A DNA stretch of 64,000 bases from a virus: positions 1 through 64,000 of the IMG/VR virus record IMGVR_UViG_3300047476_001657. One strand, written 5' to 3'. Under the pieces are notes generated by a model that did no database searches, was not told the origin of the DNA, and saw only the letters and a program-made list of their open reading frames with translations. Below, piece by piece: positions 3,598-6,333 of this stretch (positions are counted from its first letter, which is position 1; each line of letters starts with the position of its first letter). The position numbers and the translations under genes were made by a program.

Positions 3598-6333
3598 TTA
3601 CCAACAATCAATCTCTTTAAAATCACCTACTTTTATTGGTTGTGTATTTAGTTCAAGTTCACTACTTTCCGTATCATAGATATATGAGGTAACATTTTTA
3701 TCTACAATTTTGAAACGAATACTTAATCTACTTTCAGCACAAGTTTTTTGTCCTTTATTTGACCAATAAAGTTTTATGTGTTTGATTGGAACTACAACAT
3801 TATTTTCAAAGAAAATACCTGCTAAGTTGTTGGTTACATCTTCTAAAAACTTTACAGCAATTGGATGGTCAAAAAGTTCTAAATGTAAATAATCGATGAT
3901 ATCGTTATAAACATCTAAATGTGTTTCTTTAATTTTTTGAATTGTTTTACTTTGTTTGAAAATTGAGAAAAACTCAGATAAATAACTATCTACAGCAGTA
4001 TCCATCATTTTCACTTCAAACAAATCTCCATTTTCAAATATTTTTTTACCATTATAGTAAAAATCACTTGTTGCTTTCAAATCCGCTTTTATTGGATTTG
4101 TTTGTCGCATATTATTGGTAATACATCCTATTAAATCGTTAACAACTTCAGTTAGACCTTTTTGACCACTTTTGACTAATTCAACTATTTCTACAAAATT
4201 ACGTTTTTCAAACTTATCACACTTATATTTTAACTCTAATGAAGTTTGATATTTTTGCATATAAGGTCCTACTAAACTTGACTCGTAATTTGAGTACGCT
4301 TTTTCTCTAACTTTAGTCAAAAATTTGTCAAGATTTTCTGTTTTAATGTCAGATTGGTTTTTTAATCTTGCCAATCTTTTTTCAGTTTCGGTATTATCAA
4401 AAGTTGGGTTAGTGATAAACGAACCAATTGTTTTAATAAAATTACCAGGTAAGTCGTTTTTAAGTGCTAATGATATAATTTTATAAACAATACCTCTACC
4501 AAAAACCATATTTCTAGCTTGGCCTTTATCCTTTAATCTTGATGACATTTGCGGGTAATAAAAGTTAATAATAATGTCAATTGCATTAATAATCTCTTGT
4601 TTTTCATCACCACTTATATTATCAATTACCCTTTGAAGTTGACAATAAACGTTGTCCTCTTTTTTGTAACTACAAAGTTGACTAATTAAATTATCTTCTT
4701 TTTGAAAGTAGATAGCTTCTAAAATATTCTTTTGTGTTTCAGTAATCAAAATTGTTTTTTTAATTTTTGATTCTGTAACCAATTTATTTAATCTTAAAGA
4801 TGATGATTTGAACTTAACATCACTTGTTTTGAAAACATATGAATATCTATTTAATGATTGACTACCCTCATCTTTAATTTCCACCTTGTCAAAATCAAAG
4901 AATATATAGTTATCTTTGTTATCAATAAAAGCAAATATTTGAATATTTTCAGGTTTGTATTTGTTTTTACTTTTGAATATGTATGTAGTTTCACCATCTA
5001 TTTCGGTCTCAAATAAATCTCTTGTTGGTTTTACTTGAACAAACTTTGCAACTCCATTTTTGGTTACCATCATATCTTGACCATTATACTTATCTCTAGT
5101 ATCACCATCACAATATCTTGTAATATCCAAATCTTTGTATTTTGTATTTAATAGTTCTATTGCTAAGTTTTCACGATTTGAACCGCTATCTAATGTTCCT
5201 TTTTTAGTTTGGGGATTCATTATTATATCGGCTAAAGTTTTTGTAAACTTACCATCTTCACCAAATAAGAGATTTTTCATTCGGTTCATCCAAGTACCAA
5301 AATCCAAATTGTCTCTATTATATTTTTCAAAAAACTCTAATATTTTATCACTAATTCTTGTGTTAGCATCAAACCAATTCACAACTGACCATTCACCAAC
5401 ACCACCCCTTTGACTTACAGTATATTTCCCACCAATTACACCAAAGTTTGTTTTACAATCATTCGTATCAATTTTACCATAACAAGGAGATTCAATATGT
5501 TTATCAGGAGAATAATTTGTGATAATTTCTGGTGAACATTTTGGATATACCGCTTTCAACATTTTTTGAACAAATTTGTAGTTAACCCTACCATTATCTA
5601 ATAAGGGTTCAACTTGTTCAGTTATTACTTTTTTAGAAGTAACAGATTCTTTTAATTTAGATTTTAGTTTTAATTTGAATACCTCGTCAACATATTCCCA
5701 ATTTACAACATCCCAAAACTTTTTAATATATTCGTCTCTTTTGTTTTGATATTCCAAATAATAAGCATGTTCCCATAAATCTAATCCTAATAACGGAAAA
5801 CCACCACCATCAATATCATTCATTTGTGGATTATCTTGATTTGGGGTTGTCATAATTTTTAATCTATTATTTGGTGTTAGAACTAACCAAGCCCAACCTG
5901 AACCAAATCTGTCCATTGCTTTTTCGGTAAACTCTTTCTTAAAGTTGTTATACGAACCAAACTCCTTATCAATTTTGGTTAGTATTTCACCTTTAATATT
6001 TTGTTTTTCAGGTGATAACATTTTCCAAAATAATGAATGGTTGTAAGCTCCACCACCATTATTTCTTATTGTTTTTGGGAATCTTGTAATAGATTTAATT
6101 ATATCTTCCAATTCTACATTACCATAATCTTTTTTGGATAAAGCATCGTTCAACTTTTTAACATAACCCTTGTAGTGTTTGTTATAGTGAACATCCATTG
6201 TTTTTTCATCAATGAATCTGGTTAACGAATCATAACCATATGGTAATTTATCAATACCAATTTTCTTGGCTTCAGTTAATAAACTTTCACCTATTAATAT
6301 AGTTTCTTTAAGTAATTCTAGTTTCTTTTCCAT
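3598..6333 (-). CDS. sod: Fe/Mn superoxide dismutase (Mn-type signature) fused to two PD-(D/E)xK-like modules
   Basis: aa ~25-220: LPYGYDSL, HYNKH, NGGGAYNHSLFW, FGSGWAWL, NQDNP, DLWEHAYY (all four metal ligands present). The remaining ~690 aa contain GQD..x..VQVK and AD..x..FEVK motifs. Confidence 0.85.
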   Translation of the reverse strand: MEKKLELLKETILIGESLLTEAKKIGIDKLPYGYDSLTRFIDEKTMDVHYNKHYKGYVKKLNDALSKKDYGNVELEDIIKSITRFPKTIRNNGGGAYNHSLFWKMLSPEKQNIKGEILTKIDKEFGSYNNFKKEFTEKAMDRFGSGWAWLVLTPNNRLKIMTTPNQDNPQMNDIDGGGFPLLGLDLWEHAYYLEYQNKRDEYIKKFWDVVNWEYVDEVFKLKLKSKLKESVTSKKVITEQVEPLLDNGRVNYKFVQKMLKAVYPKCSPEIITNYSPDKHIESPCYGKIDTNDCKTNFGVIGGKYTVSQRGGVGEWSVVNWFDANTRISDKILEFFEKYNRDNLDFGTWMNRMKNLLFGEDGKFTKTLADIIMNPQTKKGTLDSGSNRENLAIELLNTKYKDLDITRYCDGDTRDKYNGQDMMVTKNGVAKFVQVKPTRDLFETEIDGETTYIFKSKNKYKPENIQIFAFIDNKDNYIFFDFDKVEIKDEGSQSLNRYSYVFKTSDVKFKSSSLRLNKLVTESKIKKTILITETQKNILEAIYFQKEDNLISQLCSYKKEDNVYCQLQRVIDNISGDEKQEIINAIDIIINFYYPQMSSRLKDKGQARNMVFGRGIVYKIISLALKNDLPGNFIKTIGSFITNPTFDNTETEKRLARLKNQSDIKTENLDKFLTKVREKAYSNYESSLVGPYMQKYQTSLELKYKCDKFEKRNFVEIVELVKSGQKGLTEVVNDLIGCITNNMRQTNPIKADLKATSDFYYNGKKIFENGDLFEVKMMDTAVDSYLSEFFSIFKQSKTIQKIKETHLDVYNDIIDYLHLELFDHPIAVKFLEDVTNNLAGIFFENNVVVPIKHIKLYWSNKGQKTCAESRLSIRFKIVDKNVTSYIYDTESSELELNTQPIKVGDFKEIDCW

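Follow-up and report, generated by a model that had tools for sequence, protein, structure and literature searches.

Why would a phage join a superoxide dismutase (SOD) to two further enzyme-like modules in one open reading frame (ORF)? The question is raised by P0001, a protein of 911 residues encoded by the DNA analysed here (the window), which covers the initial 64 kb of IMG/VR record IMGVR_UViG_3300047476_001657 (93,303 bp; CheckV completeness: 32%; G+C content: approximately 30%). The source is most likely an uncultured, distant T4-like jumbo myovirus of freshwater (lake) origin. On balance, P0001 appears to be a head-internal (ejection) protein precursor, in which three tagged cargo genes would be fused and the product cut by the prohead protease. 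Packaging of P0001 into the head is probable, and cleavage at its linkers is somewhat favoured.

Module junctions and leaders

P0001 comprises a short leader, an SOD domain and two modules, M2 and M3, separated by two linkers (Table 1). A sequence-only reading had described the protein as three cargo units fused with their leaders retained, and the ORF, its length and the location of each motif named there were all reproduced. A homologue search with residues 235-911 recovered 153 relatives, and a second, index-free search recovered 146. Proteins with the SOD+M2+M3 architecture (approximately 911 residues) form at least 15 distinct clusters with 53-86% full-length identity. Because this architecture recurs on many independent contigs, which come from different samples, an assembly chimera is ruled out. 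The same reading knew of no described SOD-nuclease fusion. A literature search likewise found no paper on such a phage fusion or on a packaged phage Fe/Mn SOD, but the architecture is common in public metagenomes, where it is annotated as SOD only.

Table 1. Coordinates of P0001, its parts and associated features (window positions unless a locus is named; arrows mark candidate cut points; AF2, AlphaFold2; pLDDT, predicted local distance difference test score)
Feature	Coordinates	Strand	Remarks
P0001, whole ORF, 911 aa, intact	3598..6333	-	Stop codon included; identical ORF recovered by own-genome search
N-terminal leader, residues 1-26	6256..6333	-	MEKKLELLKETILIGESLLTEAKKIG; three [LI]xE: LKE, IGE, LTE↓A
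Fe/Mn SOD domain, residues 27-220	5674..6255	-	Pfam and PDB match
Linker 1, residues 221-245	5599..5673	-	KLKSKLKES..KKVITEQ; candidate sites L-K-E↓S (LKES 227-230) and I-T-E↓Q (ITEQ 237-240)
M2, residues 246-505	4819..5598	-	AF2 pLDDT 86.6
Linker 2 and retained leader, residues 506-545	4699..4818	-	..RLNKLVTESKIKKTILITETQKNILEA..; candidate sites V-T-E↓S (VTES 519-522), I-T-E↓T (ITET 530-533) and I-L-E↓A (ILEA 537-540)
M3, residues 546-911	3601..4698	-	Helical N-part, alpha/beta C-part; AF2 pLDDT 90.3
SNF2-family helicase gene, upstream	6357..8123	-	Conserved left neighbour of the cargo slot
Two TATTTAT copies, promoter-like	6339..6356	-	Within the 23 nt that separate the SNF2 stop codon from the SOD ATG
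Head-tail adaptor-like gene, downstream	2454..3575	-	phrog_211, E-value 4e-10
Zincin-like gene, 199 aa	1855..2454	-	Start MKIIITESQYKLILEATEG; HELAH..DDAAEA motif; same leader as P0001 junctions
TATTTAT sites, examples	8160, 9965, 13639, 14632, 16160, 18078, 43126, 52204	+	
TATTTAT sites, examples	1503, 3591, 6339, 6350, 62393	-	
Leader-gene arrays	L191 7047-10389; L212 5719-9474; L223 7059-9997; L189 7053-8601		

The modules are freely combined among the relatives. Besides SOD+M2+M3 there are SOD+M2+second M2, SOD+M2+other module, SOD+M3 and zincin+SOD+M3 (720-775 aa, with the zincin motif HEWxHExQ..EDEANA), as well as M3 behind a transmembrane-like N-domain and M3 with Hydrolase_2 or Phage_lysozyme+LysM. 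Both modules also occur as single genes (M2, approximately 290-380 aa; M3, approximately 374-430 aa). The breakpoints between these architectures fall at P0001 residues ~235 and ~525-545, so the homologues give independent boundaries on the same two linkers that had been proposed from the motifs. The fusions of M3 to cell-wall hydrolases are typical of ejected proteins.

One 503-aa class (P0039, P0037, P0105, P0109, P0181 and P0184) has 130 N-terminal residues that start with the transmembrane-like VILTIVAIIPIPIPLTPFLIIFG. Both SOD flanks (KKIGID and KLEES) are kept in this class with no SOD between them, and it looks like a presence/absence polymorphism of an SOD cassette.

Genes for the separate units begin at the motifs found at the junctions. 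Stand-alone M3 genes (P0167, P0171, P0174, P0180 and L212 5719-6843) start with MK(I/V)(I/L)I(T/S)E.Q, and their products align from residue 3 to P0001 residue 528, inside KKTILITETQKNILEA (internal KKTILITETQ); their starts map to P0001 residues 526-528. Stand-alone M2 genes begin with the same leader, MK(I/F)(I/L)ITE.Q. Locus L212 also carries a leader+lysozyme gene (6840-7796, start MKIIITESQLNLLME), the Met1 of which aligns to the internal junction ISIIITESQYKTILE of P0181 (65% identity); by this alignment, the two L212 genes and the fused P0181 are a direct split-versus-fused pair. The N-terminal SOD leader, KETILIGESLLTEAKKIGIDKLPY, in turn has its homologue inside the zincin-SOD fusions of other phages, in the linker EQILLTEK..LLxEMKKIGIEKLPY. 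Judged from these aligned starts, the linkers of P0001 are retained leaders of once separate genes, which bears out the fusion of three units with their leaders kept; some relatives do encode M2 and M3 as separate ORFs, each with a leader.

The leader is not confined to the modules of P0001. Directly downstream of an M3 gene there are arrays of 4-7 consecutive genes, all starting MKIIITESQY..L.E (Table 1). The leader motif heads 11 ORFs of the complete relative G001 (322 kb), against 0.72 expected (P = 3e-10); among them are those for a GH19 protein and a PG_binding_1 protein. A short N-terminal tag ending in L/I-x-E is thus common to unrelated proteins. The MKIIITESQY arrays, which belong to another phage group, look like an array of cargo-gene cassettes.

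Candidate protease sites are concentrated in the same segments. Of the [LIV]xE motifs in P0001, 8 fall within the leader and linkers (91 residues) and 13 within the modules (820 residues; odds ratio 6.0; Fisher P = 5e-4). Among distinct sequences, [LI]xE lies 5-9 residues ahead of SOD in 38 of 39, and K[LI]xE[SAQ] follows SOD in 50 of 52, irrespective of the next module. The linker 2 motifs are kept in 15 full-length homologues. The pLDDT in linker 2 falls to 54-62, and residues 506-520 are a low-confidence stretch of the M2 model. The leader-type stretch at issue as a targeting tag is MKIIITESQYKLILEA.

One explanation would dispense with the virion altogether. SOD would be an auxiliary metabolic gene that eases oxidative stress in the infected cell, joined by accident to phage nucleases for host DNA degradation, and the shared N-terminal motif would reflect common descent or a translation-initiation constraint of small AT-rich genes. 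Phage- and prophage-borne SODs do exist without a virion context, and a G+C content of 30% favours N-termini rich in K, I, E and T. Composition, however, leaves an N-terminal enrichment of 11 versus 0.7 within the same proteome unexplained, and the motif recurs exactly at internal module junctions. The protease-M2-scaffold gene order described below and the cell-wall hydrolase fusions are also unaccounted for, and this explanation is considered very unlikely.

Head protease and proposed processing

The sequence-only reading proposed that the head protease could release the units. Peptidase_S77 (the T4 gp21 family) scores above the Pfam cut-off in all four near-complete relatives that bear the cargo (G001, 100% complete; G003, 96%; G004, 97%; G005, 93%), so a protease of the right specificity class is encoded in each. 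In G001, where the protease gene lies at 117086-117811, the genes run in the order terminase, portal, two small genes, protease, stand-alone M2 (318 aa; start MKITISEGQYKILSE; M2 profile E-value: 6.5e-90), a scaffold-like gene and a gp23-like capsid protein. The protease-M2-scaffold-like order recurs in 24 of 80 IMG/VR M2 loci, and the capsid gene comes next in 16 of these 24. The capsid protein is T4-like; its closest cultured counterparts are those of Microcystis phage Mel-JY01 and Flavobacterium phage immuto (approximately 40% identity), followed by those of T4-like cyanophages. The G001 capsid protein contains ..LINE↓ATS, at what we take to be the position of the gp23 cut site. Several proteins encoded at G001 122699-126558 (L089) have signal peptides ending ..AQ or ..SQ (MKKQILFLTLMIMSLFTMAQ, MKKVILSLLFVFSFIFGYSQ); these may hint at a Bacteroidota host, in agreement with the capsid similarity to the Flavobacterium phage.

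A different account holds that P0001 is never cut. The leaders would then be flexible helical linkers or docking elements, and the 105-kDa protein would work whole, in the virion or in the late cytoplasm; as a variant, a nuclease complex could possibly be shielded from oxidative damage by its own SOD. Conservation of the fusion is strong, with SOD fused in 49 of 80 M2 loci and present in 64 of 80 M3 loci, and suggests that physical or stoichiometric linkage is advantageous. AF2 predicts a helix at leader residues 521-539, and some homologues have K in place of the E of ITE (IITKKQ in P0010-12). Against this, the same modules occur in every combination and singly, so the linkage is equally well explained by co-translation and by joint function. 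Every junction keeps one or more [LI]xE motifs even when another is lost, and the position of stand-alone M2 among head genes argues for the prohead, which is the site of protease action. An uncleaved P0001 is therefore considered unlikely.

The closest parallel to a cleaved and packaged P0001 is found in T4. The T4 protease gp21 cleaves after L/I-x-E, T4 cargo proteins have short N-terminal targeting propeptides, tagged cargo genes differ between related phages, and the capsid-targeting principle has been described for T4 and its relatives (PMC9026906). The T4 alt ORF starts with MELITE, and its product Alt is a packaged enzyme with a propeptide of approximately 7 residues. The consensus of the T4 capsid-targeting sequence is presumably MKTYQEFIAE. 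The T4 proteins IPI, IPII, IPIII and Alt, whose capsid-targeting sequences are removed by gp21, and the proteins described here alike have a short N-terminal tag with many hydrophobic residues that begins with M-K/E and ends with L/I-x-E (here MKIIITE or MKFLITE), and in both cases the tag is common to unrelated cargo proteins. The relatives also encode a gp20-like portal, a gp23-like capsid protein and a gp21-family protease. The differences are that T4 has a separate gene with one tag for each cargo, whereas up to three putative tagged cargos are joined here in one chain with internal tags; that the tag consensus differs; and that SOD, a PD-(D/E)xK module and M3 are not known T4 cargos.

More distant parallels exist. 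In the giant phages phiKZ, 201phi2-1 and SPN3US, many head-internal proteins are cleaved by a gp21-related protease; the cuts follow the Glu of a three-residue motif, and redundant sites are frequent (PMC9026906). Their motif is S/A/G-x-E rather than L/I/V-x-E, the cleavage there removes propeptides and does not separate enzymes, and their head proteins have no sequence relation to P0001. The cultured jumbo phage PA5oct encodes a 182-aa Fe/Mn-type SOD-like protein, EST35_0261 (27.6% identity), which is a single domain without a nuclease fusion and has an N-terminal extension ending in I-A-E↓A (MNDSIKKYISIAE↓AASSVKKIPIPY; ..YISIAE↓AA). Its GenBank record is flagged as detected with tandem mass spectrometry under electrospray ionization (ESI-MS/MS), and the PA5oct mass spectrometry (MS) analysis was done on purified particles (PMC7318152). 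The gene (L257, 172979-173527) lies among ClpX, ClpS, FtsH and heat-shock genes. The Cu/Zn SOD of chloroviruses is virion-associated; it differs from the Fe/Mn-type SOD of P0001 in type and belongs to a eukaryotic virus.

P0001 might instead be a polyvalent protein, that is, a multi-enzyme effector delivered with the DNA and processed by a zincin. Zincin processing of such proteins has been proposed (Iyer et al. 2017, PMC5512222), and polyvalent proteins resemble the present family in being multidomain effectors that probably travel with DNA, in the shuffling of their modules and in the presence of zincin-like peptidase, SNF2 and cell-wall hydrolase domains. The zincin+SOD+M3 relatives fit this account, as do the leader-tagged zincin gene in the window, the constant upstream neighbour of P0001 (an SNF2 helicase, a frequent polyvalent-protein domain) and one M3 protein with a PcfJ-like domain. 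SOD, M2 and M3, on the other hand, are not among the domains listed in PMC5512222, from which, as from a jumbo-phage survey, the word "superoxide" is absent (0 occurrences), and a Glu-site leader ahead of each module is undescribed there. The PolyVal models of Pfam (MPTase-PolyVal, ArdC-N, MuF and others) gave no significant match to P0001 or to family members. The junction motifs match the pattern of the Glu-specific gp21, whereas the zincin has no known specificity; many loci keep the linkers without a zincin, the 199-aa zincin being matched in 5 of 80 loci. Neither zincin matched a Pfam model, and the zincin motif was seen by eye only. The polyvalent-protein account is thus quite unlikely, although it overlaps with that of a head-protease precursor in that packaging is implied by both. 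The competing explanations differ mainly in the protease that acts or in whether packaging happens.

The proposed history and fate of the head-protease precursor can be outlined as follows. Three independently tagged cargo genes would have been joined end to end, adjacent tagged genes having fused repeatedly in this lineage. Each unit would retain a leader of the type (K)-h-h-h-T-E-x-Q-x-x-h-h-E. If it works as the capsid-targeting sequences and the Alt propeptide of T4 do, this leader would bring the protein into the prohead's scaffold core. The leader would also provide [L/I/V]-x-E sites for a gp21-type prohead protease, and a double role, in targeting and as protease sites from which the separate proteins are regained, may be the reason that the tags have been kept at the joints. 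Cleavage in the head would yield an Mn-type SOD of approximately 200 aa, M2 of approximately 270 aa and M3 of 370 aa, all of which would exit with the DNA at infection. The proposed role of SOD is to quench superoxide, either in the virion or in a cell just infected, with possible protection of the particle or its DNA; M2 would cut or bind DNA.

Several points weigh against this scheme. Packaging, cleavage, ejection and enzyme activity are all inferred, and neither this phage nor any close relative is cultured. A prohead protease and head genes were not found on the 32%-complete source record; the presence of the protease in the source phage is taken from the relatives, which encode one. The motif [LIV]xE is very short, the leader might escape cleavage and serve as a docking or assembly helix, and the adjacent zincin gene, fused in other phages, could supply the processing enzyme instead. 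An active nuclease beside a packed genome needs a safeguard, and none was identified. Passage of SOD through the tail would require unfolding and re-metallation. The PA5oct MS list also holds enzymes that its authors call virion-unrelated (PMC7318152), so the flag on EST35_0261 is a lead and not proof. Finally, the TATTTAT element that P0001 shares with virion genes (see below) is not strictly structural, since the DnaB helicase gene also carries it.

If the precursor scheme is correct, the T4 capsid-targeting principle extends to a large group of uncultured freshwater jumbo phages. The T4-type targeting tag, gp21-type cleavage, Fe/Mn SOD and the PD-(D/E)xK fold are already known; the polyprotein layout with internal tags, the types of cargo and the placing of two phage-only families in a head context are new. 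The tag would be a portable module, and tagged cargo would be shuffled, arrayed and fused, with the head protease restoring separate proteins. Two new classes of injected protein would be added, a metallo-antioxidant enzyme and a protein with the restriction-enzyme fold, and the question would arise of how a nuclease stays harmless beside 290 kb of packed DNA. M2 and M3 gain a testable context, and the leader consensus could predict virion cargo straight from metagenomic sequence. A broader picture can be offered more tentatively, that of beads on a string: tagged cargo genes of a T4-like lineage might fuse and split freely, with the head protease as polyprotein processor, and the injected antioxidant and DNA-cutting enzymes might blunt an oxidative or nuclease-based host response. 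Such a system would be the equivalent, in a prokaryotic virus, of viral polyprotein processing, with injected effectors as its products.

Identity of the three modules

The SOD domain has the conserved domains Sod_Fe_N (PF00081; residues 27-107; E-value: 1e-21; 77.7 bits against a cut-off of 27) and Sod_Fe_C (PF02777; residues 114-217; E-value: 7e-40; 135.6 bits against a cut-off of 20.9). Its top PDB match is S. aureus SodA/SodM (5n56; E-value: 5e-64, over residues 27-220); the first 26 residues of P0001 fall outside the domain. The metal ligands H49, H99, D185 and H189 are all kept and line up with those of 5n56 and 5x2j. The intact Fe/Mn SOD of the sequence-only reading is thereby confirmed, including its G93-G95 and Q166-D167, which we take to be Mn-type markers. 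Together with best matches to Mn or cambialistic enzymes, these residues are suggestive of an Mn-type SOD.

M2 falls into two halves. The N-half, a 140-residue part with three Cys, has no known fold and no counterpart in PD-(D/E)xK relatives. The C-half (residues ~379-506; nt 4816-5199) is predicted to have a PD-(D/E)xK fold with E388, D420 and Q433-x-K435. In the AF2 model, which was built from a 30-sequence alignment, these residues are placed on helix 1, strand 2 and strand 3, respectively; the motif also includes D414, with D420 lying in GQDMMV (418-423) and Q433-V-K435 on strand 3. E388 and K435 are invariant in the family, at least 90% of whose members also keep D420 and Q433. The top Foldseek matches are I-Ssp6803I, Hjc resolvases, nuclease D212 and SPARDA (probability 1.0). 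A VIA structural search gave Z-scores of 9.1 to I-Ssp6803I (2ost; root-mean-square deviation 2.9, 99 aligned), 7.9 to Hjc and 7.7 to NhoI, and nearly all of its top 50 rows have the restriction-endonuclease fold, all over model residues 144-271 (P0001 379-506). Pfam RE_MjaI is matched by 3 of 30 family members, and an M2 profile search of PDB sequences gave no match.

By its model, the M2 C-half is thus clearly of the restriction-endonuclease-like fold, as had been supposed. It superposes on I-Ssp6803I, archaeal Hjc and type II NhoI and MjaI (Z-scores of 7.7-9.1) with E...D...QxK at the putative catalytic positions. M2 differs from PD-(D/E)xK nucleases in the extra Cys-containing N-part, in a sequence similarity that is marginal and in the Gln that occupies the acidic position of the (D/E)xK triad. 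This Gln variant occurs in some active enzymes, and the chances that M2 is an active nuclease appear evenly balanced.

M3 is harder to place. Its invariant residues are C554, C564, E684, K749, D751, E773, K775, D782, S786, E787, K793, YWS 856-858, R869 and R873, with motifs at K749-A-D751-L and E773-V-K775. All 39 sequences have E684 (helix 665-686), D751 (ahead of strand 752-754) and E773-x-K775 (strand 771-774). This E...D...ExK arrangement fits the nuclease pattern by secondary structure, a pattern that alone is no proof of membership. Neither Foldseek nor a profile search of PDB sequences gave a match for M3. In the wide VIA search the best Z-score, 4.8, was to an unrelated protein, with the restriction-endonuclease rows NhoI, Hjc, LHK-Exo and MspI at 3.6-4.1. 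The sole BFVD match is one uncharacterised marine-phage protein, and an ESM Atlas search and a Pfam scan of all 39 members gave no usable fold. Comparison of M3 with M2 by hhalign, using whole alignments and cores, gave probabilities below 1%. A nuclease core in M3 is accordingly possible but somewhat doubtful. The proposal of two nucleases is only half established: M2 has the PD-(D/E)xK fold, but M3 has no detectable known fold.

A tblastn search with M2+M3 found no relative in 50,697 phage records, which cover cultured phages, and pattern scans of 185,579 prokaryote species genomes found no cellular relative of M2 or M3. By these searches, both are phage-only families.

The proposed cargo slot and its neighbours

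The window belongs to a contractile-tailed phage, with a tail sheath gene (10003-13581) and a tube gene (14672-15160); baseplate hub, SSB, DnaB helicase and NrdAB genes lie farther along. The slot order SNF2, cargo gene, adaptor, orf112 is kept in about 69-71 of 80 M3 loci. The SNF2 helicase itself is upstream of the slot in 71 of 80 loci and carries ..NLIE.., an N-terminal motif conserved between the window, G001 and L162; this helicase, too, could be packaged and trimmed by the protease. The 199-aa zincin-like protein had no match in Pfam and PHROG searches; in other phages, a zincin domain is fused ahead of SOD.

The sequence TATTTAT is found within 40 nt upstream of 13 of the 39 window genes, against 0.5 expected. 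These are mostly virion genes (sheath, tube, adaptor and large tail genes), and dnaB is also among them. Its count in the whole window is not over-represented (40 against 50 expected), and only its placement upstream of genes is non-random. TATTTAT is probably a promoter element, and its sharing is compatible with co-expression of the cargo gene and virion genes, without being proof of it.

A second, distinct class of leader, MK(K/R)I(V/I)(R/K)LTE.DL..(I/L)VK(R/K)V(I/L).E, heads otherwise unrelated small and medium-sized proteins. Examples are MKKIVRLTEKDLTNIVKKVVSE and LTETNLTRLIKRVISEE, and the class is found in the window (1209-1487, minus strand; 3-1175, plus strand), in G001 (130110-130604, minus strand) and in the ORFs that start at 643 and 3979 of L168. 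An internal repeat of 100 residues is present in the 5'-open ORF with which the window begins.

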